Source: Jimgerdemannia flammicorona (Eukaryota). Taken from it: a stretch of 35,824 nucleotides of DNA. The translations under genes were made by a program, and so were the position numbers. The notes under the pieces are model-generated. The model ran no database searches. It worked only from the letters and a program-made list of their open reading frames with translations, and was not told the DNA's origin. Each line of letters begins with the position of its first letter. The stretch's first letter is position 1. Of the stretch, positions 1 to 27,281 are shown one piece after another. The stretch spans positions 1 to 35,824 of the forward strand of contig RBNJ01000237.1 in assembly GCA_003990765.1 (NCBI GenBank). The letters run 5' to 3'.

Positions 1-273
1 CAAGAGTACTTCAAACTTGGCCAAGTACTCAACCAAGACCCAGAAATGACCAAAGAAAATTGGATCGCAGAATGCCAGCTCTCCTATTCCCAGATCACCA
101 TTGCTAAGAGAATCCACAAGCTATTCTGAGAAAATGAACCAGCACTAGCCCACCTATGAGGAGTGACTCCCTCAGACTTCGACCAAGTCAGGCAACATCA
201 TTGGGAAACAGTAATACAACAAATTGTACAGTACAAGACCATACAGATCATTGAAGCTTGGGAGTTTGAATAG
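1..273 (+). pseudogene. ORF3 of gypsy A, C-terminal part, with stops
   Basis: Frame 1 reads QEYFKLGQVLNQDPEMTKENWIAECQLSYSQITIAKRIHKLF*ENEPALAHL*GVTPSDFDQVRQHHWETVIQQIVQYKTIQIIEAWEFE*. Both internal stops are TGA, consistent with CGA decay. Confidence 0.85.
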
Positions 274-310
274 ATGCTTCAAGGATGAGATCATCTATTC
301 AGGAGAAAGT

Positions 311-777
311 TGTGATAGTATAGCCAGATTTGGAAGAAGGAAATAGGGAACAGACACTTGATCGCACTCAGTCCCAAAGTAGTATAGCTACATAGTTAGC
401 AGTCCCCGATTTCGCCATTTGCTAAATATTTCACAAAGTGCAAGATTGAGCTTCTCAATATAGTATAGCATTTTGCAACTAGCAAAATATTTCGCAAAGT
501 GTTAAATGACTCATAACCTAGCCATGTAACTCAGTAACCATCTCATAGCTAGCAAACTTGTATAAATAACCCAGTATCTTCAAGTGAATAAACCTCAAAT
601 CAAAATAGTTCAAAGCAAAGAGATAGCAAAGGAACTAGTAAGCCTGCGAGCAGATATACTTTGAACTCACCCACCCTCCCCTGCAACTTCAAGAGACTCT
701 GTGAGAGTTAGAACAGTCAAGTTTTCAAGATACAGAAATCTGACATACTTTCAAGAGTAAGTGTCCACTACATTATA
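311..777 (+). repeat. 3' LTR of gypsy A (B-type U3)
   Basis: Near-identical to the B LTRs. TATAAATA at 561-568 and AATAAA at 587-592. Confidence 0.92.
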
Positions 778-939
778 ATAACTATATATTTCTCATAAGT
801 ATAAAATTCTTACATTTACAAGATTGAGTAACTGTTAACCATAATACTATACTATATATATATCAGAAATTAAATTCAGATACTATAATAAAATATCTAT
901 TTTTCTGATTCTTATTTCTAATTCTAATTAATTATCATA
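778..939 (-). repeat. Highly decayed U3 fragment of an older LTR of the same family, interrupted by element A
   Basis: ATAACTATATATTTCTCATAAGT...AAATTCAGATACTATAATAAAATATCTATTTTTCT resembles 1664-1880. It ends ATTATCATA, like a decayed TCACA terminus. Confidence 0.55.
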
Positions 940-1417
940 TAATAAAAAAAATTTAAACATAATTATCTTTACTATTATATATTTATTAAAATTAACATAA
1001 AAGTATTATAATAAATATTACTTAATAAATTATAGAAAAATAATAGTATACTAGTAAAGTTTCAGTAATAGAAAAAAAATTCATAGTATTTTGAATATTA
1101 TATATATTATAATATAGTAGGTACATAACTAGAGAAATGCAATAAATCTCTATAACTCTTCTTAACTCCTCAGAGTCACAAGTAGTATCTGTCTGATCTT
1201 ATTATCAGACTACTAGAGTGAGACTGATCTGAGGTTTATTCACTCTAGATACTGAAGATATTTATATAAGCTTGCTAGCTATAAGATAGCTAAGTAATAA
1301 CTATATTTTCTATAAGTCATTCTTCATAAGTATTAATTCTTAACATTTATTAAATTTTTAATAATTATTAAAATTTAATATCTGTGAAATCTTTGACATT
1401 TGTAAATACTTTAATAT

Positions 1418-1903
1418 TGTAATATAGTGGACACTTACTCTTGAATGTATGTTGGATTTCTGTATCTTGAAAACTTAATGGTTCTGACTCTCACAGAGTC
1501 TCTTGAGTTGCAGGGGAGGGTAGGTGAGTTCGAAGTATATCTGCCTGCAGGTTTACTAGTTTCTTTGCTATCTCTTTGCTTTGAACTATTTCGATCTGAG
1601 GTTTATTCACTCTAAGATACTGGGTTATTTATACAAGATTTGCTAGCTATAAGGTGACTAAGTTATGACTACATTTTCTGTGAGTCAGCAAGTGTAAATT
1701 CTCTACATCTGCCAGAATCTTTATGATCATGAAGGATTTACATCTGTAGAATTTCTATAGTTGCTAAAGTTTCTACGAATGTTAAAGTTTCTACACTTGT
1801 AAAATATGACTGCTATTTGTAAGGCTAAGCTATATTGGGAATTGGATTCAGGTACTACAATCAAATATCTATTTTCTGTTTCGATTTCATACCATATGTT
1901 ACA
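1418..1903 (-). repeat. Solo LTR inserted inside the 3' LTR of D
   Basis: TGTAA...TTACA termini with 4-bp TSD ATAT (1414-1417, 1904-1907). Removing it restores sequence colinear with the uninterrupted D 5' LTR at 3281-3340. Confidence 0.9.
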
Positions 1904-2209
1904 ATATTTATTAAAGTTTCTATATTTGTGAAATATGACTGCTATTTATAAGACTATACTATAATAAATCAAGAAATTAGATTCATATACTGTGATCAAA
2001 TATCTATTTTCTATTTCAATTTTATACTATATATTATATCTTCTCTCTAAATAGATTATTTTTAATACAAAAATATCTATTTAAATTCCTATATCTCAAT
2101 TTTTATATATTTGTTTCCTCTATATAGATATATTTATAATATATTCAAGCAATTGTCAGAATATTTTTCAAGGTCCCAAAAAAGTCTTCAAATAAATAAT
2201 TTGAATAAT

Positions 2210-2865
2210 AGTATATATATTGTCAAAAGTTAGATAATAGTATCAAAAATTGACAGCATTCTTCAAACAGTTTACAAATTGTCAAAAGTCAGATAATAAT
2301 AGTTTGTATCTTTAAAAGTCAGGTGGCAGCTTCTTCTAAAAATTGGGTAATATAAATTATATATTACAGGATGACAAATCATAATTATATTATGGAATAG
2401 CAAATTGTATATCATGGGATAGCAAATTGTAATTATATTATAGAATAGTAAATTGTATGTCATAAGATAGCTTCTAGGCTCATTGAGTGTGAGTAATGAT
2501 TTATATCTTCAAAAGTCAGATAATGGTTTATATGTTATCAAAAGTTAGATTATAATAGTTCATATATATTTTCAAAAGTTGAATAGCAGCTTCTTCCAAA
2601 AGTTAGATAGTGGTAAATTATATACTATAGGATAGCTTCTAAGCTCATTAAGTATAAGTATTGATTCATATCTTCAAAGTTGGATGACAGTTTGTATGTT
2701 ATCAAAAATCAGACAATAATAGTTTATATCTTCAAAAGTCAGATGATAGCTTTTTCTAAAAGTTGGGTAGTAGCAAATCATATATTATAGAATAGCTTTC
2801 TGGCTCATTAAGTGTGGGTAATAGTTTATATATTATCAAAAGTTAGATAATAATAGTTTATATTA
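2210..2865. repeat. Hierarchical minisatellite inside D
   Basis: About 12 recurrences of a (T)CAAAAGT(C/T)(A/G)G core, grouped in ~160-bp higher-order units that each contain GATAGCTT..GCTCATT(A/G)AGT. Confidence 0.85.
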
Positions 2866-2935
2866 GTTATTTATTATTTAGCTTGAAAGTGATAGATTTA
2901 TCTTAACTTAAATTACTAGCCAATAGATACTAAGT

Positions 2936-3434
2936 TACAATATAGTAGATGTATAACTGTATAAGTATATCAGATTTCTGTATCTTGAAAACTTGATATT
3001 CTTTAACTCTGCAGAGTTCTTAGGATATAGGAGTGAGTGAGTTTGAAGTATATCTGCTCACAGACTTACTAGTTCTCTTATTTTCTCTCTACTTTAAACT
3101 ATTTTGATCTGAGGTTTGTTTACTTTAGATACTGGGGGATATTTATATAAGTTTGCTAGCTACATATAAGATAGCTAAGTTATGACTATATTTCTTATAA
3201 GTTATTTTTCATAAGTATTAATCCTTAATATCTGTTAAATTTTTAACAATTGTTAAAACTTTAACATCTATAAAATCTTTGACATTTGTGAATACTTTAA
3301 TATTTGTTAAAATTTCTATATTTGTAAAATATGACTGCTATTTATAAGACTGTACTATAATAAATCAGAAAATCAGATTTATATACTATGATTAAATATC
3401 TATTTCCTATTTTGATTTCATATTATATGTCACA
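2936..3434 (-). repeat. 5' LTR of D
   Basis: R-U5 matches the A/B/C LTRs and U3 matches 1236-1417 plus 1908-2038. Ends TGTCACA on the plus strand. Confidence 0.85.
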
Positions 3435-3543
3435 ATATATATATATATTTAATTTGATTATTTTACTTTAGTATATATATTAATATTAGAACAAGGTTTT
3501 AAAGTACTTAAACCAGAACAACTTATCTATTTAAAATTAAATA

Positions 3544-3698
3544 TATTAAAAATCTAAGTTTCTATTATATATATCTCAATATGTAGTAGTATAGCAAATC
3601 TTTATTTATATCATCAATCTTGATGTATAAAAGGTATAACTTGCTTAATCAATAAACAATTACTTCTTACTTTGCTTATTCTCTCTAACTCTATAATA
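3544..3698 (+). repeat. 5' LTR of copia E
   Basis: Direct repeat of 27650-27799. Confidence 0.9.
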
Positions 3699-3899
3699 AA
3701 TATTATAAGCTCTATTAGTAAAAGTAGATAATAATAAAAACATCTCTTTAATATATACTATATTATATACAAAGAAGATATCAAACTCAGATATATCAAA
3801 TACAAGCTCATTAAGTAATATAAGCAGAATGAATATTAGCATAAGTATGGTCCCAATAGTCATGATGATAACTATTTCTACAGTGGTAGTATTAGTATT

Positions 3900-6800
3900 A
3901 ATAATAATAGTAAAAAGAATAATTTTTATCTTTAATGGTAAGAATTATACTATATAAGTATACTATATAAAGAATCTCTTAGAGGAATGTAGTTTGGAGA
4001 ACTACTGAAAGTCATAGATACAAATAATAAGATATAATATTATAAAGAATTATAAAGTGCTAAGAGAGATTATGTTGATCCTTTTAAATATATAAATAAA
4101 ACTCATCATCAATACTATAATAGTGAATAAAGTCTGGAAGATCTTATATAATTACCACTAACAAATATCAGTATCAAAAAAATTCTATCTAAAAGTACAA
4201 CTATTTAATCTCTAAATAAAGTCCAAAGAGAGCAACTGAGACTATACTGATTAAGTTGATGAGCTAGTAAATTAAGTAAACTCTCTTATATCTATATTAG
4301 TAAATACTATCAAGGATGAAGACAAGATTCTAGCTCTTATACAAGACCTTTTTGAGATATATAATATTATTATTATCTATGAGAGAATCTAGCAAGATAT
4401 TGAACTATAAGTATATTATCACAAGTCTTTTAAATGAGAAATTGAGACTGGGTGATAACAATAATAAAGATGATGAGAAAGCATTCTAACAGAATATATA
4501 AATAAGTCAAAGATAAGTAAGATAAAGGACAAGAGCAAAGCCAGTAGTATAATAGTTAGTATAATAGTTAGCAAGTCAAATTTAATAGTAAATACTTCTA
4601 CTATAATAAGCATGAATACTATAAGTAAGACTGTAACTATAAAAAGAAGAAAAAGAATAGTTAAGAACAATAGCAGACAAATATAGTAGATACAAATAAT
4701 GATGATAGCAGAGGTCTATTCTTTACAGAGATGGCAATCTATTTATATATAAAGAGAGATAAAGAAGTAAATTTAAAAAAAAAAATTCAGATGGCAAAAA
4801 ATAGTAATACTAATATCAATAGTACTAGTACTAATATAAGCTATATACCAAGTATTTATATATATAGTGAAGAAGTATGGCTTATAGATTCTAGTATAAT
4901 ATAATATATAATAGTATACTATAAGTAGTTCTCTATATATAAGAAGTTCAAGTACTCCATATCTATCAAACTGGATGATAATAATGTTATATATACCCAA
5001 AGCAATGATAATATTAGTATATACCTATATAGAAATATTGACAAACCTTTAGATATCTTTGTAGATATATTGTATATATCAGATATAAGTAAGAACCTCT
5101 TCTCAATAGGCCAGATGATGGCTTGAAGAAATAGAGAAGTAAATATATATCCAAACAGTATAACAGTAATCAATCTGAAGAATAATAAGGAGTTAATATA
5201 TGTATTAAACAAGGAGAATCTATATGTAATTAATAATATATCAAATAGTATATTATATATATTCTATATATAACTATAACTGGAAAGAATCTCTAATATA
5301 TATATATAGTATGAATATTTAGGACACATTAGTAGAATATGCTTAGAATAGATGATAAGAAGTAGTTCAGTGAGAGGATTACTGGGCTATATATCTCTGA
5401 ACTTCTTTTGTATAGATATATAGCAAATAAGACTTTCTGGTAATCTTTTCAGAAATAGATAAAGTGAGTAACTAATATTTTCAATATAATATATATAGAT
5501 ATCAATGACTCTATATATACTTCAATATACTCTGAGAAGAGATACTTTATTATCTTTATTAATGATTATACTTATAAAATCTATATATACTTTCTTATAG
5601 TAAAGAATGTAATATTTAAAAATTTAAAATAATTATGGAGAATGAAATAGAATATAAAATATAGACTCTATACTCAGATAACAGTAAGGAATATATCAAC
5701 AAAGCTTTTAGACAATTCTTGAGGAATTATGGTATTTAATACTCTATGATAGCTCTCTATATATCTTAGTAGAATAGTATAGCAGAATACTTTAATTGAA
5801 TAATAGTAGAGATAACTCATACAATGATAAATATGACTAGCTTACCACACTCCTTTTGGACTGAAGTAGTGAATATAGTAGTATATACTCAAAATTATTA
5901 TATTTCTCAAGCTCTAAGTAAGGAATCTGATAATAATCAATAATCTAGAAATAATACTAATCTTATCCCTAAAGAATTGTAGAGTAGATCTAAGTCTGAT
6001 ATTTTGCATCTATATATATTTAAAAGTGAGGCTTATATTCTAGATAAGAGTAGTAATAAAGATTAGTTTGAGTCTAAGATATATAATTATATATTCCTTA
6101 AATATAATAGGGTGATATATAGATTATAAAACTTGTAAAAACACTATATAATTATCTCTCATAATGTTCAGTTCAAGGAGACCAAGTAGGAAATTTATGT
6201 AGAAATTTCTATCTCTATATCCAATCCAACAGTATAGTCAGTAATATCTATACTAACTTCAAAGATAAGTAGAATAATCTCTATATCTAGAACAGTAGTT
6301 AAAATTCCAATAAAGGTATCTTTGATATCTACACTAGTACCAGTACAGTCTATATCTATATCAATAATACTATTAGAGCTAAGAATTATAGAAATTACAG
6401 ATAAGAATAATAAAGAGGATACCTCTCCAAAGAGAAAAAAGAAGTATAGATTAAGACTGAATAGTGAAATTTAAGTAGATTTAGGAGGTTATTGAGATCT
6501 ATCTAAGACATTCTGTCATAATAGCAAATATCATATAAACTATATCTGTGAGTATACCTATATAGCAATGACTAATAAGCCAGTAAACTATAATGAAGCC
6601 ATTCACTCAGATAATAAGAAAGAGTGAAAAAAGGCTATAAATAAGAAGTGTAGTTTGCTTATTAAAAATAGTACTAGGATCTAGTTTCTTCTCTGATAAA
6701 TAGGCAATCTATTAGATCTCAGTAGGTCTATAAAATCAAATAATAACTAAGATAGTATAGAGTAATACAAGGTCCAATTTGTGACAAAGAGATATTCACA

Positions 6801-7313
6801 AAACTTTAATATCAACTATAATAAGATCTTCTCCCTGATATTTAAGCTTACTTTACTTAGAATACTTCTTATAATTAGAGCTAAATATAACTATGAAATC
6901 CACTAAATAGATATCAAGATAGTATTTCTAAATAAAAATATAAATACTGAACTATATGTATATTAATTATAAGGATATAAACTATATGATAATAAGTAAA
7001 AGAAGCTCATATATAAATTATATAAAAATCTCTATAGTATCAAACATACAGCAAAGTTGTAGAATTAAAAATCAATAAATATCTTATAAAAGACAATTGA
7101 TTCAAGTATTACAAAGTATATTTATATATATACTTATTATATATTCTCAGGAATAGTATATTTAAAAATTTGGATTAATGATATCATTTTAGTTAGAACA
7201 ATGAGTGAAATTAATAAAGTAAAGATAGTATTATATAAAGAGTTTAAAATAATAGATATGGGTAATAAATCTTTTTTTTTTGAAGATATTCATCATATGT
7301 AATAGAAGTATAT
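3900..7313 (+). pseudogene. Copia E gag-protease-integrase-RT, heavily decayed
   Basis: Remnant motifs: FNGKNYTI* (~3931), WLIDSS (~4879, protease), SDNSKEY (~5672, integrase), H*IDIKIVFLN (~6901, from HQMDIKTAFLN) and WINDII (~7171, from WVDD). Start coordinate is approximate. Confidence 0.8.
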
Positions 7314-7782
7314 TGTAATGTAGCAGATGCTTACTCTTAAAAGTACGTCAGATTTCTATATCTTGAAAACTTGACTGTTCTGACTCTTGCAGAGTCTCTT
7401 GAAGTTGCATGAGAGGGTGGGTGAGTTCGAAGTGTATCTGCCCACAGGCTTACTAGTTCCTTTGCTATCTCTTTGCTTTTTGAACTATTTTGATCTGAGG
7501 TTTATTCACTCAAAGATACTGGGTTATTTATACAAGTTTGCTAGCTATGAGATAGTTACTGAGTTACATGGCTAAGTTATGAGTCATTTAACACTTTGTG
7601 AAATGTTTCACCAGTTGCAAAATGCTATACTATATTGGGAAGCTCAATCTTACACTTTGCAAAATATTTAGCAAGTTGTGAAATCAAGAACTGTTAGCTA
7701 TGTGGCTATACTACTTTGGGACTGGGTGTGATCAAGTGTCTATTCTCTATTTCCTTCTTCTGAATCTGGCTATACTGTCACA
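7314..7782 (-). repeat. 3' LTR of B (469 bp)
   Basis: Direct repeat of 13563-14024. Adjacent PPT AGGAGGAAG at 7784-7792 on the minus strand. Confidence 0.97.
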
Positions 7783-7819
7783 ACTTCCTCCTGAATAGAT
7801 GATCTTGTCCCTAAAGCAT

Positions 7820-8281
7820 CTATTCAAACTCCCAAGCTTCAACGGTCTGTATGGTCTTATATTGCACGATTTGTTGCATTACTGTTTCCCAATAGTGTTG
7901 CCTGACTCGGTCGAAGTCTGAGGGAGTTACTCCTCACAGGTGGGCTAGTGCTGATTCATCCTCTTAGAATAGCTTGTAGATTCTTTTGGCAATGGTGATC
8001 TGGGGATAGGAGAGCTGGCATTCTGCAATCCAATTTTCTTTGGTCATTTCTGGGTCTTGGTTGAGTACTTGGCCAAGTTTGAAGTACTCTTGGAATTCAT
8101 TCCAATGCTGATAGGCCTTGAAGTGTGAGATCTGAGAGAGATGAGTCTGCACAATGCTTTGGATACTATCATAAGACTCCTCTATGGTTGGAGACTCAGT
8201 GGTGTACCATTGTCTCTTGATGGCTCTTTGGGCAGCACTAGTGATCTTGAGTACTATCACAGTACTTTTGTTACTGGCCAT
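7820..8281 (-). pseudogene. ORF3 of B, ~153 aa, unknown function, two in-frame stops
   Basis: The ORF-track entry 7964..8281 continues in frame through TAA and TGA to ...VEAWEFE* at 7820. Its ATG overlaps the last pol codons (TAT TAT GGC CAG TAA). Homologues are present in A and C. Confidence 0.85.
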
Positions 8282-11200
8282 AATATTTCTTGAGTCAGTT
8301 TCGATGAATGGTGGTGGGGATTATTATGCCTGAGGGTTTTCGTAGCCAAAAGGTGGTTCCTTTTATATCTTGCACAAGGTAAGGTCCTTCCTACTTGGGC
8401 TCCAGTTTTTGTGACCATGAAGCTTCAACCATATTCCAATACACCAGAACTTTGTCTCCTATCTTGATAATCTCCAAGGGTTTGTGGGTCTTTTCTGCAT
8501 TCCTCCATTGTAGTGTCTGCACCTTGGTTATGTAATTCTCAGCCTTCTTTCTGATTTGGTGTAGTCTCCATATTTCCATGTCCACATGTTTCCATACAGC
8601 ATCTCCATTGGATGATAAGGTTCTCAGAGAACATTCTTCTCCGAATAGCATTTCTTGAGGGGTAAAGTGGGTACTTTGTGATCGGATATCCCGGAGAGCA
8701 GATAATGCTATTGGTAGATAGTGATCCCAGTTCTCGTAGTTATCGCAGATCTTGGCAATAACGTTCTTAAGGATTTTGTTGGTCCTTTCTACTTGTCCAT
8801 TTCCTTGAAGGTGATATGCTGTGGTCCGAATATGCTGGATCTTGTACTTTTTATAGAGAACTTTGAAGAACTGGTTCATGAATTCTGTTCCTCTATCTGT
8901 AGTTACTTGTGTTGGGGTCTTGAACTGGCAGATGATTTCCTTGTGGAAGAAATTGGCAATTGACTGTATATTGGCTTCCATAAGAAGTCCCACTTCTATC
9001 CATTTTGTAAAGAGGTCTACAATGACAATGATGTATCAGTTGCCAGTCAAGGTCAAGGGTAGGGGGCCGATTATATCCATTGCAATGTAGGCAAATAGTA
9101 CTGGTTCTATGTATACTGATCCTGAGGCTTGATTTCATTGATCTTGTTTCTGTTTCTGGCATTTGTTGCAGGTCTTGATGAATTGTCTGATATCTTCCTC
9201 TATCCCTGGCCACCATATTGTTCTCCTTGCCTTGTCATATATATTCGTTCCTCCTAGATGGCCAAGTTCATGTACTGATTTCATTGCTTGCTCCTTCTTG
9301 TATTCTGGTATGACTAGTAGTTTTCCTTTCTTCAGTGTTTCTCTGTCAGTTTTGAATTATTTCCATGTTCTGTTGATAATCATTTGTGTCCATTCTTCCA
9401 GATGTTGGGGCATCTTTCACTGTCCCAGATATGTGATAATTCCATAGTAGAGCTCCTTATTCATGATGATTTTATAGGGGTGGGGTCTTTCAGGGTGTCC
9501 GTGAGAGGGCATCAGCATTAGCATTGGTTCTTCCAGAGCAGTGTATGATAGTTACATCATAAGCTTGCAACTTCATTATCCATCTGGCATAGATTCCTTT
9601 GGGTTGTCTAGTTGTCAGTAGTTAGGTGAGAGCTGAGTGGTCTGTTTGGATGGTGAAGTGTCTTCCAGCCAAGTAGTAGTGAAACTTTTCTATAGCCCAG
9701 ATGACTGCGAGGCATTCCAACTTGTAGGATTCATATTCTTTTTCAGCTCCTCGGGTTCCATGGCTGAGGTATACAATGACATACTCCACTTTATCTTTCT
9801 TTTGAGCTAGGACTGCTCCTAGTCCTTGTGCACTTGCATCAGTCTGTAGGATGAATTCTAGAGTCCAGTCAGGTCTTCTGAGGATGAGTGCCTGGGTCAG
9901 TCTGACCTTGAGTTCATCAAATGCTTTTTGTTGTTTACTAGTCCACTGGAACTTGGTATCCTTCTTGTTAAGTTTGTAGATTGGTTCTGCAATATTAGAA
10001 AATCCTCTAATAAATCTGTGATAATAGGAGGTGAGTTTCATGAAGGCTTGGGCTTCCGTAACAGTGGTGGGTCTTGGGTATGCTGCCACTGCTTATATCT
10101 TGAGGGGGTCTGTGTATATTCCATCTCAGTTGATGATGTGGCTGAGATTGAAGATCTCGATTTCTGCAAACTTGCACTTCTTGGGTTTGATGTAAAGGCC
10201 ATGTTGTCTTAGTCTCTCCATTATCTGCTGTATGTGCTGCAGATATTCCTCAGGTGTCTTGCTGTAAATGATTATATCATTAACATAGACCATCATCCAT
10301 CTTCCCATATCATAGTGGAAAATTTTGTTCATTATTCACTGGAAACTTGCTGGTGCATTGCACATTCCAAATGGTATTCATAGATAGACATAGGTTCCAT
10401 CTGGAGTGATGAAAGCTGACTTTTCACTTGCTATGTCTGTGAGTCCGATTTGGTGGAATCCTGAGTATAAGTCCAAGGTGCTGTAGTATTGTGCTTTATC
10501 TCCCAGTGTTATGAGGATGTCATTGATGAGGGGCAGTGATTAGCGATCCTTCTTGGTAACTATGTTGAGGTTTCTGTAGTCGACACAGAGTCTTGGGGTG
10601 AATTCTCCAGGCTTGCTATCTTTTTTCAGGGCCAGTACAACAGGTGAGGACCAGGGACTGCTGGCTTCTTTAATGATATCAGCTTCTTCCATCTGCTTGA
10701 TTTCTTCTCTGAGCCATTCTTGGTAGGCTGGCAGGACATGTCTTGCTTTCTGATAAATTGGTTCAGTGTCTCCAGTATCTACTTCGTGATAGTAGTGTGG
10801 GGTCTTCCCTTTGATATCCTTGAAATCTGTGGCAAGGACATCTTCGAATTCGTGGAGTATTTTCTTGAGTTCTTTCTTGAGTGGAAATTCATTTCCAATG
10901 GTGTAGCTGTGCTTGCTTGTGTTTTCCTCCTTCTTATGCTTGAGTTTGGTGATCTTGGTGTTGGCAAATACTCCTCTTCCTGTGGATCTGAATCCATTCT
11001 TTCCTCTTCTTATTTCCTCCAGCTTCTTAACTTCTATGATCTTTGGTTATAGGATTGGAAAGATCAATATTTGCACCAATTGGTTCTTCTTCTTGACTGG
11101 AAATGAGATTATAGGATTGTAATTCCTAGCAATAAGTAGAATTTCTCCGGTGTAGTCTAAATTGATGACTCCTCCTTCAATTGTAATTTTGCTCCTAGCC

Positions 11201-13448
11201 AGACTGCTTCTTGTCTTGAGAATCCTGACATGATCCTTTGGGATGGTCATCTCCAATCCAGTTGCAAGTAGGGTGGTTGTCTGGGATTCCAGTATGGTCT
11301 CTTCTACTGTAGCGATGTCCATTCGAGCTGCATTTTCTGACTTATATTCTGGCAAGGCTGCATCAGGGTGGATCTTTCAGATCTTGACCTTGATTTCTTC
11401 TTCATCATCACTGTCCTCCAGGAGAGCTGGTGGTTCATCATCTTCCTCCTTCTCTTCTTCCCTGATCTGTTTTTCGAGGGCTTTCTGCCTTCTTTTCTGG
11501 TGGACCTTCCTGATTCTGATGGTGCACTGGTAGCAATCATTGACATGCTCCATGCAGTACATTTTGATCCCATGAGGACAGACTCCTTGTGGGGCATAAC
11601 CTTCTGTGATCTTCTTATATCATTCTTCTTCACTCATCCATCCACTTTCTTCTTCTTTGGAGTAGTCACCATATAAGCTTCCTCTTGCTTGCTCTTTTCT
11701 TCCTCCATATCAGACAGGACTCCTTTGTTGATATTGATGGGAATTCATATCTTCTGTCCCTGGTAGGTGATCTGCATCTTCTGGGCATTGAGATTGATTA
11801 CTGCCTTGGCTTTGTGAAGCCATTGATTGCCAATAAGGATTTCATAGTTGGTGGCATTGGTTACAATTATATCTACTGAGATGGTTGCTTCTCCAATCTT
11901 GATGGGAACATCTCAGATCTTTCCCAGAGGTGTGGCTCTTGTACCATCGGCTGTGATGAATACTAGCTTAGTTGCTTCTTCCACATCCCAACCTAGGCGG
12001 TCTGCTGCCTTCTTGCTGAGGAGATATCCTCCTGCTCCCGTATCAATGATGGCCTCAAAGATTCTATCTTTGATTTGGCATATTGCATATGCAGAGGTTT
12101 TGTGATTGTCCTCACTTTCTTCTCCTGAGTCCTCTTGAACATTATTGGTCTTGGTTATCTTCTATCTCTGTTTCTTAGTTGTTTCGGCAAGTCCAAACCT
12201 CATTTGCTGTCTGAATGTTGAGATTTCTGCAAGCTGACCAAAGGTTGCATTGACCTTTTGTTGGCTGAGGTCCTTTAAGATATCATACTTGAAGGTCTTA
12301 GTCTTGCAAAGCTTCTTTTCTTTTTCTCCTTCAATGGCTGGAGTGGTTCCTCAGATGATATCTTAAACTGCTTGCTTCAGCTCTGTATCTTGGTCCATCT
12401 CTTTGGCTTGGCTTTCTGTAGCAGTTTCCATCTGCTTTTCCACTGGGCTCTTCTTGGGTCTTCCTGGTGGTCTCTTGTAGGGCTCTTTGTGAGCATCCTT
12501 CTTAGTGGTCTGAGCAGGATAGACCTCCCATTCTTCTTCATCAGAATCTCCAATCTCCTTGAAGGTAATTATATTGGTCTGCTCCTTGTTTCATATAGCA
12601 TTGCTTGGTTGAGCCTTGTGCTTGGTTTCGCTTATACATTCATAGGAGTAGTGGCCTTCTCCTCTGCAAGTATAGCAGGTGCCTTTCTTCTTATCTGAGG
12701 TGGTGGCAAACTTCTGGACAGAGCGGTGGTCTCTTCTTCAAATTTCCTTTACCATGTCTCCCAGGTGGGCAGTCATTTTGGCAAACCTTTTGGCGAGTTC
12801 CTCCATAGGGTCACTGTTCTTTTGCTGCTCTGTAGCTTTTGGCTGAGGTGTATTTCAATTGATCATTGTGGTAGGGATCACACTAGTTGTCTTGAGTGCC
12901 TCAATTCTGACTCCTGTGACCCTTTTCATTATATGGTCTTGTGGATGTCTGGCTATCCAGTATCGCTGAGCATAGGTGACCTTCTGTAGTAGATCCAGAA
13001 TTACTGGTAATGAGCGGATGGTCATGGCTATTTCTGAGTGGACTCCTTTCATAAAGGTTGCCTCAGCTACTTGATCTCGGATAGCAGCATCATAATCTGC
13101 CAGGATTATCTGATATTGAATTCTGGTATAGAATGTGTTTAGATCCTTGCTTATTCCTTGGCATATTGTATTGAGCTGATCCTTCAGGGCTTGCTTGATC
13201 TCGTCTGTATAATATGTATTTCAGAGCCAGATCTTCTGTAATATCAGTATAGCATTAGCATCATTTCCTGCATGGGTTGCAGCTGTGAATGCTGCTCTGG
13301 CAGGGCCTCATAGGCTAAAGAACATGAGGGCTACTTGCTGTGCTGCTGTCAGGGTCCTTACAGTGGCATACTGCTCGAAATCATCAATGAAGATGATGAT
13401 TGATTCATCTGAGATATATCTGTGGAATACTGGTGGTCTCATATTCAT
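8271..13448 (-). pseudogene. Gag-pol polyprotein of B, inactivated by stops and frameshifts
   Basis: Gag starts MNMRPPVFH. Zinc knuckle CYTCRGEGHYSYEC (~12636-12677), protease AIIDTGAG (~12031-12054), RT LCVDYRNLN and MVYVNDII, RNase H FILQTDAS...LECLAVIWA...TDH...NADALS, integrase HELGH...CNKC, DIIGP, TDRGTEF, GQVERTN and GPY. No chromodomain seen. Confidence 0.95.
10978..11393 (-). pseudogene. dut: dUTPase domain within pol of B, between protease and RT
   Basis: All five trimeric dUTPase motifs are recognisable: AARMDI (AGxDL), KTRSSLA, GGVINLDYTGEI, QLVQIL (RIAQL) and RGKNGFRSTG (RGxxGFGSTG). Confidence 0.93.
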
Positions 13449-13546
13449 CTTGTCTGGGTATTGGGGCTCGGTTTGTATGGTCATTCAAGTGGTGGTGGTT
13501 GTTTGTTATTCAGCTTGAAAGTGAGGGATTCATCTTGAATCACCAG

Positions 13547-13559
13547 CCAATGGGCACCA
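13547..13559 (-). promoter_or_regulatory. Primer-binding site of B
   Basis: Minus strand reads ...TTACA-ACT-TGGTGCCCATTGG. Decayed copies occur in C (15161-15173) and D (~2920-2932). Confidence 0.75.
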
Positions 13560-13562
13560 AGT

Positions 13563-14024
13563 TGTAATATAGCAGATGCTTACTCTTGAAAGTACGTCAG
13601 ATTTCTGTATCTTGAAAACTTCTGACTCTCGCAGAGTCTGTTGAAGTTGCATGGGAGAGTGGGTGAGTTCAAAGTGTATCTGCCCACAGGCTTACTAGTT
13701 CCTTTGCTATCTCTTTGCTTTTTGAACTATTTTGATCTGAGGTTTATTCACTTGAAGATACTGGGTTATTTATATAAGTTTGCTAGCTATGAGATGGTTA
13801 CTGGGTTATGTGGCTAAGTTATGAGTTATTTAACACTTTGCAAAATGTTTTGCCAGTTGTGAAATGCTATACTATATTGGGAAGCTCGATCTTGCACTTT
13901 GTGAAATATTTAGCAAGTTGTGAAATCGAGAACTGTTATCTATGTGGCTATACTACTTTGGGACTGAGTATGATCAAGTGTCTATTCTCTATTTCCTTCT
14001 TCCGAATCTGGCTATACCATCACA
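13563..14024 (-). repeat. 5' LTR of B (462 bp, 7-bp deletion relative to the 3' LTR)
   Basis: Direct repeat of 7314-7782. Confidence 0.97.
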
Positions 14025-14028
14025 ATAT

Positions 14029-14726
14029 ATACTATATTCTTGAGCCAAAAAACCTATATTAAGATTATACTAAAATAATTTAGTATGAGTGAATACAAAT
14101 CTGTCAGAATCTCTATAGAGTTATCTGTAAGGTTAAAGAAGTCCAGTAATACTATACTCAAAACTTTGTCCAGAACTAATAATATTCTCTATTGATAAGT
14201 AGTGAGATCTCTAATACATATATCTTATACTTAGAACAAGATCTGATATATTATATATAGTCAACAAAGTAGCACAATACTTATTCTACTATAACAATAT
14301 GTATTAGATAGCAATCAAACATATTTTGCAGTATATTAAAAATATAGTATACTATATACTCAGTTTGGATAATAATAATAAGAGATAAAGTGGGAGTACT
14401 ATAAGGTTATCTAGTATATATATATAATACTAATTAGATTAATAATCTAGATGATAGACAGTCTATGACTGAATACCTCTTTAAATCACAAAGAAGTAAT
14501 TTTATAGCAAATATATAAGCAATCTTCAGTAATAACATCATCTATATAAGCAGAATATCAAGTATTATCTATAGTGACAAAATAAGCTATATAGCTTTAA
14601 GAACTTCTAAAAGAGTTAGGATATAATTAATAGTATTCTATATTACTTTTACAAGATAACCAGTCTATGATTGCTCTAGTAAAGAACTCTATATTATACT
14701 AGAATGAAGTATATTGATATATATAG
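14029..14726 (+). pseudogene. Copia E RT C-terminus and RNase H, middle fragment
   Basis: Remnants *AEYQV (~14547, from EAEYQA), QDNQSMIAL (~14652) and RMKYIDI (14701-14721, from RTKHIDI), cut by insertion of C. Confidence 0.85.
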
Positions 14727-15157
14727 TGTGACAGTTGATCCAAATTAGAAATATGAATTAGAGGAATTAGACATTTGATCACAGTATCTGAACCCAATTC
14801 CTAATATAGTATAGTTATATAAATAGCAGTTATAGAACTTTGCTACTAGCAAATACTTTGCTATTAACAAACACTTTACTACTAGTAAATACTTTACCAT
14901 TAGAAAAATGACTTACAACATAGCTACCTTATAGCTAGCAAACTTATATAAATAATCTAGTATCTTAGAGTGAATAAACCTCAGATCAAAATAGTTTAAA
15001 GCAAAGAGAAAGTAAAGAAACTAGTAAGCCTATAGGCAGATATACTTCAAACTCACTCACCCCTGTATCCCAAGGACTCTATAGAGTCAAAGAAGATCAA
15101 GTTTTTAAGGTACAGAAATCCAACATACTTCCAAGGTTAAGGGTCTACTATATTACA
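14727..15157 (+). repeat. 5' LTR of C
   Basis: TGTGACAG...TATTACA. Direct repeat of 26847-27277. Confidence 0.95.
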
Positions 15158-15268
15158 ACTTAGTACCTATTGGCTAGTGATTTAAGATGAATCTCTCACT
15201 TTCAAGCTGAACAATAAATAACCACCACCTAAACAACTATATAAATTGAACTAAGATATCTAGACAAG

Positions 15269-18200
15269 ATGGATATGAGACTATCAGTATTCCATAGTTA
15301 TATTTCAGATGAGTCAATTATTATATTTATTGATGATTTCAAGTAATATGCTATTATAAGGGGCCTGACAGCAAGACAGCAAGTAACTCTCATGCCCTTT
15401 AGTCTCCAAGGACCAGTAAGAGCAGCATTCACAGCTATAATCTATGTAGAAAATGATGATGATACTATGCTAGCAGCACAGAAGACCTTGCTCTAAGCCA
15501 CATACTATACAGATGTGATCAAGCAAGTCCTGAAGGATCAGCTCAATACAACTTGCCAAGAAATAAGTGAGAATCTAAATATATTCTACACCAGAATCTG
15601 ATATCAGATAATACTTGCAGATTATACTACCACAATCAGGGATCAAGTAGCCAAAGTAACCTTTATAAAAGGAATCTATTCAGAGATAGCTCTGGCCATC
15701 TACTTATCACCAATAGTCCTGGATCTGATACAAAAGGTCACCTATGCTCAGCAATACTAGATAGCCAGACACCCATAAGACAATATAATAGAGACAGTTA
15801 CTGGAGTCAGAATCAAAGCATCCAAGGTAATTAGTGTGATCTATATCACAGTGATCAATTAAAATACACCTCAGCCAAGAGCTATTGAATAGTAGAGGAA
15901 TAGTGAACCTATTAAGGAACTTACCAGAAAGTTCATCAAAATAACAGCTCATCTAGAAGATGTGGTAAAGGAAATTAAAGGAAGAGACTACTACTCAGTT
16001 CAAAAATTTGCCATCACCTCAGACAAGAAGAGAGGTACTTGCTATACTTGTGGAGAAGAGGACCACTACTCATATGAATGTATAAGTGAAACCAAGCATA
16101 AGGTATAGCCAAGCAATACTACTTTAAATAAGGAATAGGCCAACATCATTATCTTTGAAGAAATTGAAGAGTCTGATGAAGAGGAGTGGGAGGTCTATTC
16201 TGTATAGACTACTAAAAAGAATGTCTACAAAGAACTCTACAAGAGATCACCAGAAAGACCTAAGAAGAACTCAGTGGAAAAACAGATAGAAACTGCTACA
16301 GAAAGTCAAGGTGAAGAAACAGATCAAGATATGGAGCTAGAACAAGCTATTCAAGATATCATCTGAGGAACCACTCTAGTCAGTGAAGGAGAAAAGATGA
16401 AGAAGCTTTGTAAAACCAAGACCTTTAAGTATGATATCTTTAAGAATCTCAGTCAATAAAAGGTCAATGTAACCTTCAGCCAGCTGGTAGAAATATCTAC
16501 ATTCTGATAGCAAATGAGATATGGACTTGCTGAGACAACTAAGAAGTAAGGTTGGAAGATAACCAAGGCCAACAATGTTCAAGAAGATTCAGGAGAAGAA
16601 AGCAAAGACAACTGTAAGACCTCTGCCTATACAATCAGCCAGATTGAAGATAGAATCTTTGAAGCCATTATTGATACAGGAGCAGGAGAATGACTCCTCA
16701 GTAAGAAAGCAGCAGATTGCCTAGGTTGGGAAGTTGAGGAAGCAATCAAATTGGTGTTTGTCATAGCAGATGGTACAAGAGCCACACCTCTGAAAAAGAT
16801 CTGAGATATTCCATCAAGTTTGGAGGAATAACTATTCCAGTGGATATAATAATAACCAATACAACTAACTATGATATCCTCATTAGCAATCAATAGCTTT
16901 ATAAAGCCAAGGTAGTAATTGATCTAAATGTCCAGAAGATGCAGATCACCTACCAAGATCAGAAGATGTGAATTCCCATCAATATTAATAAAGAAGTCCT
17001 GTCTAAGATGGAGGAAGAAGAAAGTTAGCAAGAAGAAGTCTATATGGTAACTACTCAGAAAAAGAAGAAAGTCAGATAGATTAATAAAGAGAACTAGTAC
17101 AAGAAGATTGCAGAAGAATATACACTATAAGGAGTTTACCCCTATGGAATAAAAATATACTGCAGTGAGTACATTAATGACTGCTACCAATGTAGCATTC
17201 GTATCTGAAAGATCTATCAGGAAAGAAGACAGAAGACTTTTGAAAAACAGGCAAAAGAAGAGAAGGTGGAAGAGGATGATGAACCACCAACCCTCCTAGA
17301 GAATAGTAATGATAAAGAAGAAATCAAGGTCAAGATTCAGAGGATCTACCCTAATACAGTCCTATCAGAATACAAGTCAGAAAATACAGCAGGAATGGAT
17401 ATTACTACAGTAGAAGAAACTATACTGGAGTCCTAGACAACCACTCTACTCACAACTGATCTGGAGATGACCATTCTAAAGAACTATATCAGAATCCTCA
17501 AGATAAGAAGTAGTCTGGCTAAGAGCAAAATTACCATTAAAGGAGGAGTTATTAATTCAGATTATATTGGAGAAATACTACTCATTGCTAGGAATTACAA
17601 TTCTACAATTTCATTTCCAATTAAGAAGAAGGACTAACTGGCACAGATGTTGATTTTCTCAGTTCTTCAGTCAAGAATCATAGAAGTCAAGAAGTTGGAG
17701 GAAACAGAAAGAGGAAGGAAAGGATTCAGATCTACAGAAAGAGGAGTATTTGTAAGTACCAAGATCACTGAGCTGAAGTACAAGAAGGAGGAAACTACAG
17801 ACAAGTATAGCTATACTATTGGAAATGAATTCCTACTCAAGATGGAGCTCTAGAAAATACTATATAAATTTGATGACATTCTCACTACAGACTTCATAGA
17901 TATCAAAGAAAAGACTCCACACTACTATCATGATATAGATACTGGAGATACCAAACCAATTTACCAAAAGGCAAGACCTGTTATACCAGCCTACTGAGAG
18001 TGGCTCAGAGAAGAAATCAAGCAGATGGAAGAAGCTGGTATCAATAAGGAGGCCAGTAGCCCCTGGTCTTCACCAGTTGTACTAGCTCTAAAAAAAGGAA
18101 GCAAGTCTGGAGGATTCATCTCAAGACTCTGTATTGATTACAGAAAGCTCAATATAGTTACCAAGAAGGATCACCAACCACTGCCCCTCATCAATGATAT

Positions 18201-18858
18201 TCTTATAACTCTGGGAGATGAAGTACAGTACTACAGTACCTTGGATCTATACTGAGGATTCCACCAAATCAGACTCACAGAAACAGCAAGTAAGAAATCA
18301 GCCTTCATCACTCCAGACAGAATCTATATCTACTTGCAAATACTATTCAGAATGTGCAAGTTTCCAGTGAATGATAAATAAAATCTTCCACTATGATATG
18401 AGAAGATAGATGATGGTTTATGTAGATGATGTTATTATCTATAACAAGATAGCTAAGGAATATCTGCAGTATATTCAGCAGATAATAAAAAAGCTAAGAT
18501 AGCATAGTCTTTATATCAAGTCCAAGAAGTGCAAGTTTATGAAAATTGAGATTATCTATCTTGACCATATCATCAATCAAAATGGAATACACACAGACTC
18601 TCTCAAGATATAAGCAGTAGCAGCATACCCAAGATCTACTACTATTACTGAAGCCCAAGTCTTCATGAGACTTACCTCATATTACTGCTGATTTATCAGA
18701 GGATTCTCCAATATTGCAGGCCCAATCTATGAACTCAATAAGAAGAATACTAAGTTCCAATAGACTGGCAGGCAACAGAAAGTATTCAATGAGCTTAAGG
18801 TTAGATTGACTCAGGCACCCATCCTCAGAAGACCTGATTAGACTCAAGAATTCATCCT
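15269..18858 (+). pseudogene. Gag-PR-dUTPase-RT of C (5' part of gag-pol)
   Basis: CYTCGEEDHYSYEC (~16039-16080), AIIDTGAG (~16664), LCIDYRKLN, YVDD at 18419-18430. Interrupted at the RNase H start (QEFIL). Confidence 0.93.
17322..17739 (+). pseudogene. dut: dUTPase domain of C
   Basis: AGMDI, IRSSLA, GGVINSDYIGEI, *LAQML and RGRKGFRSTE. Confidence 0.92.
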
Positions 18859-18905
18859 GGGGCACCTTTCTCCTGTACAATTCACATTATACAAAACTTC
18901 AAGCA

Positions 18906-20970
18906 ATGGTTTTTGATACAACTAGGAGAAAAGGTACTATCATTATGGCATCAAGCAAGAGTTCTGATGGGCATACTGGGTCAGAGAGATCTGGGGCTTT
19001 TGGCTGGCAGAATGTGGGGAGGGGTTATGGCCTGGAGATAGGGGCCTTTGGAGGGTCGAAGAGTGGCAAGGGCTCTGGAGGAGGTCCAGTGTTAGGTGGT
19101 AATGGGGGGAGGACTGGCCCCTCAAGCTTTGCAGACAAGGTGAAGAGAAGTGGATGGCCAGCTGGAGACAGGGCTGGTGCTGCTGCAGGGAAGGACAAGG
19201 TGAGCCTTGGGAGGGGGGGAGGTCCTCAGGCTGGAGGTAGGAGCATAGGATCTGGAGGTATTGTGGCTGGGGGTGAGACTGCTGATGGAGGTGTGATGGA
19301 AAATCAGGAAAAAAAAAGAGATGTGATGGCTGATGATGGAGTGGGGCTGGGGTTACTGATTTGGAAGGGGGACCTGGCCAATGGTATGATAGGGCTAGTG
19401 GTGGCACCATTACTCAAGAAGTCGGTTTCGGAGTTTGTGGCTACCTTGTGCTTCCAGGGCTTAGCAGTGATGGCAAGGATAGTTCTGGGGCTTATCTCAC
19501 AGCAGGTGGCTGGGGTGGCCTCAGTGAAGTTTCTGAGGGGGCTGGAGGGGGTAGAGGTAGGCTTTGAGGAGGCAGGCCCACTGGATGAGGCGATGAAGAC
19601 TAGAGTGATGATTGGTGAAGTAGTGGTCCCTATAGTGCACTGCCTTAGGTAGAACCCCAGAGTGGTACAGCTGCTAGTCAAAGGAGTACCTATGATGATA
19701 AAGATTAAGACTAGGAGGAGGGTTGAGGAGGTAGTGGCAGAGTATGGTGATGTAGTGGATATCAGATTCTGAGTGTGGGAGGGGACAGCAATTAGGACAG
19801 GTGATGTGAATGTCAGGATTAGGCTGGTGGAGAAGGAGGCCACTGGAAAGGCAAATGACTGGCCTTCAGTACTGATGTGGGGGGCTGTTGTCTGTAGAGT
19901 GTCAAGGGTGAAGGAGAGTGAAGAGGAGGAGGAGGACTTGTTGGAAGTGCTGAAAGAGTTAAGTAGTGCAGTGGAATGGAGGGTGAAGGCCTGTAAGCTC
20001 TTTGAGGAGACAATACATCTGGAGGTTGTGGAGGGGAAGTGGATCTATATGGACAAGAGGCAGTGGGAGTGGGCACAGGGGTGCAGGAGGCAGAGAGAGC
20101 TTTTGGTAAGTATGAATATGGAGGTAAAGAAGAAGGCAGAGGGGGCTGAGGTGACTGGGGGTATCAAAGCCAGGTCTGGGCTGGTAAAGGAGAGGGGGAG
20201 GTGGAGGCAGGCAAGGTAGGAGCTGGGAAGGTGCCAAGCAAGGACCCATATACTGACAGCACTTTTGAGGTCTGGGAGCAGGAATTGGATGCCACTACCC
20301 CCCCTCTTATCAGGAGGGGCCTGGCTGTGAAGAGAAGGATGACAGAGGATGTACTGATGAAGGGAGCCCAGCGAGTGTAATTTGGGGTCCCTGATGTAGC
20401 AGAAGGGGCTAGGTGGTGGTAGTTGGTGAGGATGAGCTAGTAGATGTCCCTGAGGAGGAGTGGGATGAGGCTGCCAGTATAGGTGCTGACACTATGATGT
20501 TGGATGCAGGATGGCCAGGGACTCTGAGTGGGAAGGAGGTGGAGAACTTGCTGTGGATGAGCAAGGTGATGGACAACCTCACAGCTGAGGCTTTGGGAGA
20601 AGTGGACCTGTGGGCAATGTCTGATGAGCATTGGGTACAGATGCTGTATAGAGATGGAGTGGTGGAAGCACTGAGGGCAGAGATTCTTACAATCTTCCTG
20701 GAGGAGGAGGGTTATGAGGTTGATGAGATGAGGAAGGTGGAGCTGATGGTGGTTGCAGATGAGAGGGCAGCCTACTGTTGGGCTGAGCATCATGGTTTAC
20801 AGCTCTGGAGGGAGGTCTGTCTGGAGTATTGTGAGGACTTTGAGGAGAGAGAAGATGGGGCAATGGTAGAACTTCTGGAAGAGTTAGAGGCATGGGAAGC
20901 TGGAGAAAGGGAACTAGCTGCTGAACATGTCTTGGACTTGGTGCAGGAGGAGAAGAATGTGGACTTATAG
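18906..20970 (+). pseudogene. ORF1 of LINE F (Gly-rich N-terminus, RRM-like core, acidic C-terminus), with stops and frameshifts
   Basis: The ORF-track pieces 18906-19652, 19773-20219 and 20413-20970 are linked by TAG/TGA readthrough or a frameshift. VQLLVKGVP...VAEYGDVVDI...RTGDVNVRI resembles the L1/Tx1 ORF1 RRM. The start could be the ATG at 18946. Confidence 0.75.
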
Positions 20971-21001
20971 AGGATGGGATTGCTACTTAACATTATTTCT
21001 T

Positions 21002-24000: not shown

Positions 24001-24659
24001 CAGCAGAGATCAGCAAGGAGTGGGACTGGGCAGATATCTGGTCTTAGAGTACTGAGGTGCAGAGGTGGCTTCCTCCCAAGTTCTGGGTGATATGATAGTG
24101 AATACTGCAGAGGAATGTTATGTTAAACTTTCACACTGGACATCTGGTGGAGAGTGGCCATTATGATTGTGAGGAGTGTTATAATGTAGAGCAAGCAGGG
24201 AGAATTATACAGACACCAGAACATTGGCTGAGAGAGTGTGAGATCTTGAGAGACTTTTGGATAGAAATAGGGGATATATTAGATGTGGGGCAGAGGCTGG
24301 TGAGTGTGGGAGGCCACTGGGAGGACTTGAGGTCTCAGCTAGTGGGTGGGGTGGAGGATAGCTGGCTCACTATAGGGTGGGTATTGGCAGTGTGGGTGGG
24401 ATTGACAGGACATTGGCTTTTTGTATTTGAGGAGGGGTAGCAGATAGGGCTGTAGAAGAAGATTTCCTAGTGGGAGGAGCTATTGGGGGATCTGTTGACT
24501 GGATGGTGGGTGGGTTGGAGTCCTCAGGGTGGACAATATTGCAGTTTGGTGACAAGGATCTGTGTGCAGAGTGGAGAGAGAGTAGAGATTGTATTAGACA
24601 AAATGGTCTTTTATTGAGAAGGGGTAGATAGGAAGGGCCCCCCTAGGGGGATCAGATAG
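21002..24659 (+). pseudogene. ORF2 of LINE F: AP endonuclease, reverse transcriptase, C-terminal Cys/His motif
   Basis: SVNVNGL, LLQD, GGDFN, RIDW, SDH (inverted), GEQPTRY, APGEDGL, NWRPIMLLDID, QQGF, LDQKKAYD, RGVPQGDPLS, FADD (23109-23120) and CEEC...EHWLREC. No RNase H seen. Confidence 0.95.
21665..21849 (-). other. 185-bp internal inversion in LINE F ORF2
   Basis: The minus strand encodes PWSDHW...GPRHWCLNSSLL. It is bounded by GTGC (21661-21664) and GCAC (21850-21853). Confidence 0.93.
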
Positions 24660-24723
24660 GAGGAGGGATCACTGTATTTATATGGGATAGATGGGCATAA
24701 TAAAGGAAGGAAGTCCAAGTGAC

Positions 24724-24777
<54 letters not shown>

Positions 24778-24789
24778 AGAATTCATCCT

Positions 24790-26805: not shown

Positions 26806-26846
26806 ATAGAATGTCTCAGAAATGAATCACCTATTCAGAAGGAAGT

Positions 26847-27277: not shown

Positions 27278-27281
27278 ATAG

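Follow-up and report, generated by a model that had tools for sequence, protein, structure and literature searches.

Repeat-confined C-to-T mutation in retrotransposons of Jimgerdemannia flammicorona resembles methylation-linked decay rather than canonical repeat-induced point mutation

C:G>T:A mutation of repeated DNA has been described in several fungi, and these systems frame the present analysis of element B, a retrotransposon of Jimgerdemannia flammicorona, a root-symbiotic member of Endogonales (Mucoromycota) with an assembly of 231 Mb (GCA_003990765.1). Element B lies in a stretch of 35,824 nucleotides (contig RBNJ01000237.1, 1..35,824), hereafter the window. A sequence-only reading of the window had guessed that the host was an early-diverging fungus, as it indeed is, and had described the mutation of the element as either similar to repeat-induced point mutation (RIP) or driven by methylation. 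We find that the mutation bias is real, is confined to repeats and amounts to a several-hundred-fold excess of C>T changes. The best reading, to which we assign a probability of roughly 0.62, is that DNA methylation is targeted to transposons and that the methylated sites then deaminate slowly, one by one. Of the two alternatives in the earlier description, RIP fails the tests reported below and the methylation-driven process fits, with 5-methylcytosine (5mC) as the presumed intermediate.

RIP in Neurospora crassa, with its RID and DIM-2 branches, is described as producing C:G>T:A changes only, destroying repeats and leaving AT-rich relics, and 3163 changes are recorded in one 802-bp copy over 24 spores (10.1101/115501). 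J. flammicorona resembles it in the first three respects; RIP as presented in that account, however, prefers CpA and is triggered by arbitrary duplications, whereas here the hits are single and independent, CpG comes first and host duplicates are spared. The Dim2-dependent mutation of Zymoseptoria tritici (PMC8016269, PMC8497519) likewise involves DIM-2-type enzymes, C>T changes confined to transposons and CpA as the leading non-CpG target, but in these accounts more than 98% of the changes are at CpA, CpG is spared and mitotic action is shown; here CpG leads and CpC is also hit. Basidiomycetes and Tuber, as described in PMC4352252, mutate CpG first (and, in Tuber, CpA second) and possess class II enzymes of the Dnmt1 family, and methylation followed by deamination has been proposed for them; they differ from J. 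flammicorona in phylum, in that Tuber has RID whereas the searches detailed below found none here, and in that CpC change is substantial and CpT spared here. The RIP-like TpCpG hypermutation of Pucciniomycotina, as reported in PMC3318451, is also a CpG-directed C>T process in transposons, but here TCG mutates less than any other CpG context in each of the three families studied.

Phycomyces blakesleeanus and Rhizophagus irregularis belong, like J. flammicorona, to Mucoromycota and carry 5mC in transposons, with CG the most methylated context (PMC11258239, PMC8647823); the text of these reports on which we draw describes silencing, not hypermutation. In Phycomyces, 5mC is reported as confined to repeats, at 3.4% in CG, 0.9% in CHH and 0.5% in CHG, and this ranking is also that of the mutation rates found here (PMC11258239). 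A survey scores J. flammicorona as no_rip, places RIP-like signatures in ascomycetes only and counts 37,472 matches between repeats in this species that are 1 kb or longer and 95-100% identical, versus 0 in N. crassa (PMC12543289); another report states that RIP signatures are undetected in Mucoromycotina (PMC8647823). We found no earlier report of such mutation in Endogonales in the open-access literature.

The structure of element B is as follows.
7314..14024, minus strand: element B, a full-length mutated Ty3/gypsy retrotransposon with long terminal repeats (LTRs) and a dUTPase domain, recognized by Pfam domains, LTRs and target duplication
8391-9032, 9625-10092 and 11050-11376, minus strand: Pfam domains rve (integrase), RT_RNaseH and dUTPase, respectively
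7314..7782, minus strand: 3' LTR (left copy), with the ends TGTAA...TCACA on the plus strand
13563..14024, minus strand: 5' LTR (right copy), from the LTR alignment
7310..7313, no strand: left target-site duplication, ATAT
14025..14028, no strand: right target-site duplication, ATAT

The limits first proposed for the element, 7314-14024, are exact, and a 4-bp duplication, ATAT, flanks it. The CpG observed/expected ratio (o/e) within it is 0.13-0.31. The two LTRs differ by 31 transitions, 2 transversions and one 7-bp indel, so that the 33 substitutions with only 2 transversions that had been estimated by eye are correct; the transition excess has P=2e-4 even if two thirds of changes are expected to be transitions. 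Twenty of the 31 transitions lie at sites that are CpG in other LTRs of the family, 7 of these 20 forming reciprocal TG/CA pairs, and the rest are at CpA (7) and CpC (4), with none at CpT, which agrees with the earlier description of TG/CA pairs from ancestral CpG and a remainder of CpA or CpC changes.

Two further properties of the element deserve mention. Its dUTPase domain (11050-11376, minus strand; Pfam E=3e-14) is located upstream of the reverse transcriptase (RT) region; such domains are uncommon in Ty3/gypsy elements, and this one is curious given the heavy cytosine deamination that seems to occur in the host. The target duplications flanking B-family insertions are 4 bp long and in most cases read ATAT or another RTRK-type word, which suggests a target preference.

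The mutation spectrum was derived from the whole family. An LTR search of the assembly scored 40 full-length family LTRs among 3865 candidates; the 39 besides the query are 90-93% identical, none above 93%. Among 34 family-B regions examined, 18 have both LTRs at full spacing and make, together with B, 19 full copies, the remainder being excluded from the spectra. These 18 are 90-92% identical to B, and the 19 copies form a star-like tree in which each carries about 7.6 private transversions over 5.8 kb. LTR-to-LTR differences within a copy record changes after insertion only, and we compared 18 pairs (8128 sites), leaving out copy L046, in which a missing LTR end yields 9 false transversions. 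The pairs differ by 468 transitions and 17 transversions, and only 6 of the transitions, among 4632 A/T sites, are T>C; 257 differences fall at CpG columns, 126 at 864 CpA, 55 at 586 CpC and 22 at 1291 CpT sites, with 2 unclassified. The two LTRs of the pairs are hit equally (243 vs 249).

Expressed per LTR, the change is about 0.39 per cytosine at CpG (0.38-0.86 by context in the family), 0.079 at CpA, 0.049 at CpC and 0.009 at CpT, against 0.0006 for T>C and 0.001 for transversions. Non-silent internal sites of the family match the LTRs (CpA 0.085, CpC 0.049, CpT 0.013). CpG change is about 370 times that of transversions, and CpA and CpT change at about 120 and 13 times the T>C rate, respectively, a rate that rests on 6 events. 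The non-CpG excess is therefore real and large; the spectrum is not one of CpG only, and the proposed CpG-first process with a broader context stands. The consequences for coding capacity are equally one-sided. Stop calls in the 19 full copies are, in 403 of 410 cases, C>T or G>A derivatives of a codon found in other copies (CGA>TGA 209, CAA>TAA 66, CAG>TAG 53, TGG>TAG 36, TGG>TGA 24 and two-step 15; 7 codon columns with a stop in at least 15 copies, 128 calls, are left out of this count), which bears out the origins first suggested for them, and the family averages more than 20 stops per copy.

Load is graded among copies, with 40-82 of 230 CpG intact, and is correlated between LTRs and interior (rho 0.53); such variation is what age or methylation level would cause. 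The CpA rate is flat (0.077-0.092) with distance to the nearest CpG dyad, which speaks against spreading of mutation from CpG sites. Across the 19 copies, non-CpG C>T load correlates negatively with transversions (rho -0.57, p=0.012), a relationship that remains unexplained.

Two more gypsy families, Y1 and Y2, for which 30 loci taken from 150 RNase H matches provided 18 and 11 partial copies (some small contigs in this sample may be collapsed copies), share the order CG>CA>CC>CT. T>C and transversion totals of Y1 were not used, being inflated by flanking non-element DNA in loci L101 and L106, nor were younger families used for rates, 20 regions having yielded only 3 partial LTR pairs.

The context of the changes matches unrepaired 5mC deamination. 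At CpG in family B, the order by 5' neighbor is ACG 0.86 > CCG 0.63 > GCG 0.53 > TCG 0.38, and it recurs in Y1 and Y2 (TCG vs ACG, 0.21 vs 0.54 and 0.22 vs 0.44); at CpA, it is A 0.119 > C 0.086 ~ G 0.081 > T 0.043. In MBD4-knockout cells, the reported order is ACG>CCG>GCG>TCG, and AC>CC>GC>TC holds at both CpG and CpA (SBS1/SBS96, PMC11564873). The latter is, as described, a human somatic signature, unlike the present process, which is confined to repeats, has a larger share of CpA and CpC and shows a slight strand excess. Double-hit TA dyads are far fewer (150) than the ~630 expected if both cytosines changed independently, and this deficit implies that the fast rate requires an intact CpG dyad. 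Together with the independence of single hits, demonstrated below, the 5' order and the dyad effect are the features expected of 5mC decay. An HhH-GPD search gave 4 matches in 3 loci, which by motif presumably resemble MutY, Nth and Mag, none being like MBD4. With TCG lowest (0.38 vs 0.86 at ACG), a TCG process of the Pucciniomycotina type is ruled out.

Plant-type CHG methylation decay is ruled out as well, in Y1 and Y2 as in family B. The sequence-only reading had pointed to symmetric CTG decay around position 18836, GACTGG having become GATTAG. The site is real, with GACTGG in 18 of 19 family copies and GATTAG in element C, an older relative of B introduced below, but it combines one CpT hit with one CpA hit, and the pattern is coincidental. 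Paired CWG loss is at chance: element C has 9 double hits vs 8.7 expected, and the 19 copies have 10 vs 6.5 (p=0.15). CHG does not exceed CHH (0.036 vs 0.041, p=0.49), CTG (0.010) is among the least-changed contexts, and CCG stands at 0/100.

Host DNA provides the control for these rates, beginning with a gene inside the window.
29635..31900, plus strand: host kelch-repeat gene region, the unmutated internal control; CpG o/e 1.07, sub-threshold Pfam matches of the Kelch type

CpG o/e is 0-0.3 in repeats throughout the window, compared with 1.07 in this region, and the border is sharp: the final CpG is at 32170, and there are 0 CpG in 26001-29000 and in 33001-35000. Elsewhere in the assembly, 61 loci were compared as host duplicates; only 3 pairs exceed 82% identity, and these are coding sequences under selection. 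HSP70 paralogue segments (91-92% identical over 1248+642 aligned bases) have CpG o/e 1.03-1.12 and 67:34 transitions:transversions, a kinase pair (89.7% over 1742 bases) has o/e 0.85/0.79 and 103:33, and a kelch pair (85% over 1118 bases) has o/e 1.0; 20 kelch loci at 64-85% identity are also near 1. The pairs are unlikely to be alleles, as one run differs from the assembly at only 6 sites and one indel over the C8187 methyltransferase gene described below, and another run at none. The kelch gene of the window belongs to a multi-member family (24 matches), some members lying in tandem on contig C428 and all being CpG-rich where examined. The tyrosine-kinase-like family PF07714 is large, with 572 candidates and at least 150 matches, and several of its loci (L205, L214, L221) have CpG o/e of 0.5-0.7, possibly reflecting partial methylation of expanded families by analogy with Rhizophagus.

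These controls bear on the idea that a genome-wide C>T bias, or editing or errors during retrotransposition, produced the pattern, with genes protected by selection alone. Part of the coding variation is indeed silent change passed down from active lineages (silent-site fold 1.37, with a phase effect), and there is a mild sense-strand excess at CpG. But the LTR-to-LTR differences arose after insertion and affect both LTRs equally, non-CpG rates are the same on both strands (CpA 0.088/0.083, CpC 0.049/0.049), introns and intergenic DNA of gene-rich loci also have CpG o/e of about 1, and host paralogues have transition:transversion ratios of roughly 1-3. We consider this explanation highly improbable.

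Canonical RIP would act premeiotically, in homology-triggered, RID-type bursts on any long duplication. RIP events are strand-coordinated, and canonical RIP hits closely linked direct repeats hardest. In J. flammicorona, the almost exclusive C:G>T:A change (468:17), its confinement to repeats (CpG o/e 0-0.3, against about 1 in the kelch gene and gene-rich loci) and the mutated appearance of all 39 other scored LTRs, none above 93% identity, would all suit such a mechanism. The strand-coordinated clusters that the sequence-only reading proposed to look for were, however, not found in any of the three families by permutation and heterogeneity tests. In family B, the TG:CA strand ratio shows no heterogeneity between copies (chi2 18.3 with 18 degrees of freedom), whereas simulated one-strand rounds give median chi2 values of 50-3200 at up to 100 rounds, and only at least 200 rounds of at most 1.5 hits approach the data. 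Adjacent hits share a strand no more often than in permutations (0.505 vs 0.511); windowed strand variance is borderline for CpG (p=0.05) and null for non-CpG changes. Linked repeats are hit no harder, the LTR/interior change fold being 0.94 (0.81-1.09), and intact CpG makes up 0.34 in LTRs vs 0.26 in the interior. CpA is not the preferred target (0.08, vs 0.38-0.86 for CpG), long duplications above about 80% identity do not appear to trigger the process, judging from the HSP70, kinase and kelch pairs, which are few and under selection, and no RID-like gene is among the 5 C5-methyltransferase genes that weak searches brought up. Finally, the species is scored as no_rip in the survey cited above (PMC12543289). 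Canonical RIP is largely refuted here, and we give it very little credence.

The oldest repeats appear at first sight to favor RIP, their composite RIP indices being positive (0.14-0.39). A second element of the window makes it possible to follow the decay further.
14700..27290 (ends approximate), plus strand: element C, related to B (about 79% identity) but older, and interrupted by a long interspersed nuclear element (LINE) insertion, from self-matches of the window

Element C is a later stage of the same decay as B. Compared with the family, it has 0 CpG dyads left and changes of 0.38 at CpA, 0.23 at CpC and 0.14 at CpT, with T>C 0.03 and transversions 0.02, the T>C value indicating that these rates include some lineage divergence. 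The earlier statement that old elements have lost C/G in nearly all contexts is therefore right about the loss, which is nonetheless uneven among contexts; in the oldest blocks, CpT o/e is about 1.5. Forward simulation that applied the family-B rates to one copy for four further age units gave GC 0.35, CpA 1.06, CpC 1.01, CpT 1.46 and TpA 0.97, close to the composition of element C (GC 0.363, CpA 1.08, CpC 0.98, CpT 1.50, TpA 0.93). At 10-15 units, GC falls to 0.24-0.28 and the indices become RIP-positive, resembling the oldest blocks. RIP-positive indices are thus reached without RIP and are not diagnostic here.

Five C5-methyltransferase genes were found in the assembly, two DNMT2-like and three long class II genes. 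Exons of two methyltransferase genes match J. flammicorona proteins at 100% identity.
C8187, C3657 and C11271 (loci L055, L056, L159): DIM-2-like class II methyltransferase genes, from PC and ENV motifs and a tree; the third was read without its 5' part
C58+C2181 and C1744 (L032, L033, L158): DNMT2-like genes, from motif reading

Two DNMT2-like genes are reported for Phycomyces too. The products of the three class II genes fall into one clade with DIM-2-like proteins of Phycomyces, Gigaspora, Basidiobolus and Trichoderma (100/99), apart from plant MET1-like and CMT sequences, in a tree built without basidiomycete DNMT1, so that the assignment to DIM-2 vs fungal DNMT1 is not fully settled. Two of the three have their closest named relatives in Phycomyces, and the best solved-structure match of the two class II enzymes tested is 9bap, which we take to be Neurospora DIM-2. 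The enzyme encoded on C3657 has a long branch and an unusual catalytic loop, VGCPCQAF. The GT-AG introns of the C8187 gene are removed in 2/2 runs (X1, X2) that look like RNA, a status that we guess. The Zymoseptoria system thus has a counterpart here in three DIM-2-type genes with PC and ENV motifs, but not in near-exclusive CpA mutation (257 CpG vs 126 CpA). An inventory of DNMT1-, DNMT5- and RID-like genes, which the sequence-only reading had called for, yielded these three DIM-2-like genes and, in weak searches, no RID, DNMT5 or canonical DNMT1. No RID-like gene was among 8 PF00145 and 6 TIGR00675 candidates or the 11 matches of a RID motif pattern, of which only the DNMT2 control was a methyltransferase; the exon-wise search was weak and used no RID query sequence. 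The first exon-wise profile search missed 2 of the 5 methyltransferase genes later found, and a plant MET1-like query matched only two of the known ones. Loss of DNMT5 and RID is reported for sister clades of arbuscular mycorrhizal fungi in Mucoromycota (PMC8298701).

We propose that the silencing (heterochromatin) system, rather than duplication as such, would mark transposon DNA, which the DIM-2-type enzymes would then methylate, densely at CpG, less at CpA and CpC and little at CpT. 5mC would turn into thymine one site at a time, probably by spontaneous rather than catalysed deamination, and repair of the resulting T:G pairs would be poor. C:G>T:A changes would build up independently in each copy and on either strand; when one of the two cytosines of a CpG had mutated, the other would change only at the slower CpA rate; stops would accumulate; and elements with 44% GC would, over time, turn into blocks with 20-25% GC.

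Several observations weigh against this scenario. The excess is larger than is known for passive decay in mammals, and its size over background could mean enzymatic help. No canonical DNMT1 or DNMT5 that might explain the CpG preference was found in the exon-wise searches, which were weak. A TDG/MUG-like glycosylase gene fragment (N-terminal part) is present on C34337 (L122); it is the sole UDG-family match, so that UNG either escaped the search or does not occur. CpG changes show a 1.23-fold sense-strand excess (bootstrap 1.06-1.38; 1.13-fold in LTRs, none at CpA or CpC), which pure SBS1/SBS96 decay would not produce; a raw internal asymmetry of 0.31 vs 0.46 fell to this value after modelling of 5' context and silent sites, and part of it may come from silent variants that were inherited. 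Pairs of non-CpG changes no more than 10 bp apart are slightly more frequent than expected (205 vs 177, p=0.007), an effect absent among singletons. For the oldest blocks, the simulation removes too much CpA (0.57 at GC 0.24 vs 0.85 observed). Finally, CpA changes most among the non-CpG contexts and CpT is spared, a preference shared with the DIM-2-dependent mutation of Neurospora and Zymoseptoria, which is described as favoring CpA though DIM-2 methylates all contexts (bioRxiv 10.1101/115501; PMC8016269).

The last point would suit an enzyme-assisted process in which cytosines of silenced repeats are actively converted at low dose, a few in each cell lineage or sexual cycle, either by the DIM-2 paralogues or by a deaminase partnering them. 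Such a process would resemble the Dim2-dependent mitotic mutator of Zymoseptoria or DIM-2-dependent RIP in Neurospora, but would also act on CpG and CpC. The several-hundred-fold excess over background and the three DIM-2-like paralogues, one of them long-branched, are compatible with such a process, which needs no RID; the power test allows for it if rounds number 200 or more and each brings no more than 1.5 hits. The 5' context order, however, equals that of unrepaired 5mC deamination; CpG leads 5- to 8-fold here, whereas in the Zymoseptoria accounts more than 98% of changes are at CpA and CpG is spared; and DIM-2-mediated RIP is described as spreading into flanking single-copy DNA (10.1101/115501), whereas genes beside CpG-free repeats keep o/e of about 1 here. 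We regard this process as possible but rather unlikely. A stronger proposition, which seems to us doubtful, is that an expanded set of DIM-2 paralogues suffices for active mutation of transposons in Endogonales, independently of RID, hitting CpG, CpA and CpC in small doses and sparing CpT and host duplicates; if true, this would place an early-branching forerunner or counterpart of RIP, one that does not depend on homology, in a lineage surveyed as RIP-free.

The process belongs neither to canonical RIP nor to the TCG type and works like methylation-linked transposon decay, possibly enzyme-assisted. On the preferred reading of methylation followed by deamination, methylation-linked mutagenesis can do the job of RIP without its hallmarks and still leave room for expanding gene families and a genome of 231 Mb, the C>T excess filling transposon copies with stop codons in a species surveyed as no_rip. 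The fingerprint CpG>>CpA>CpC>>CpT with SBS96-like flanks and the three candidate enzymes offer a way of studying how mutation arises from DIM-2-type methylation. In this lineage, RIP indices are misleading, as are ages estimated from LTR divergence. Should passive deamination alone be at work, the case is an extreme one of known chemistry.

The remaining features of the window are listed below.
1..780, plus strand: end of another B-family copy (internal piece and LTR), truncated where the contig begins; matches B in inverted orientation at 90-91%, CpG o/e 0.23
800..7313, no strand: very old AT-rich repeat remnants including decayed B-family LTR pieces, the end stage of decay; GC 0.24, CpG o/e 0.04, CpA 0.85, CpT 1.5
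near 1414-1614 and 2932-3127: LTR-like pieces inside 800..7313, from self-matches of the window
18860..24776 (ends approximate), plus strand: LINE-like element with a poly(A) end, inserted in element C; Exo_endo_phos at 21269-21664, just below the Pfam cut-off
34377..34700, minus strand: RT remnant of an old Ty1/copia element (RVT_2, E=4.5e-9) in a CpG-free block, with 0 CpG in 33001-35000

The LINE-like insertion at 18860-24776 has about 50% GC yet a CpG o/e of 0.04, and its sense strand is strongly G-skewed, up to 0.51. A second LINE fragment, at 35087-35824, is 72% identical to this insertion.

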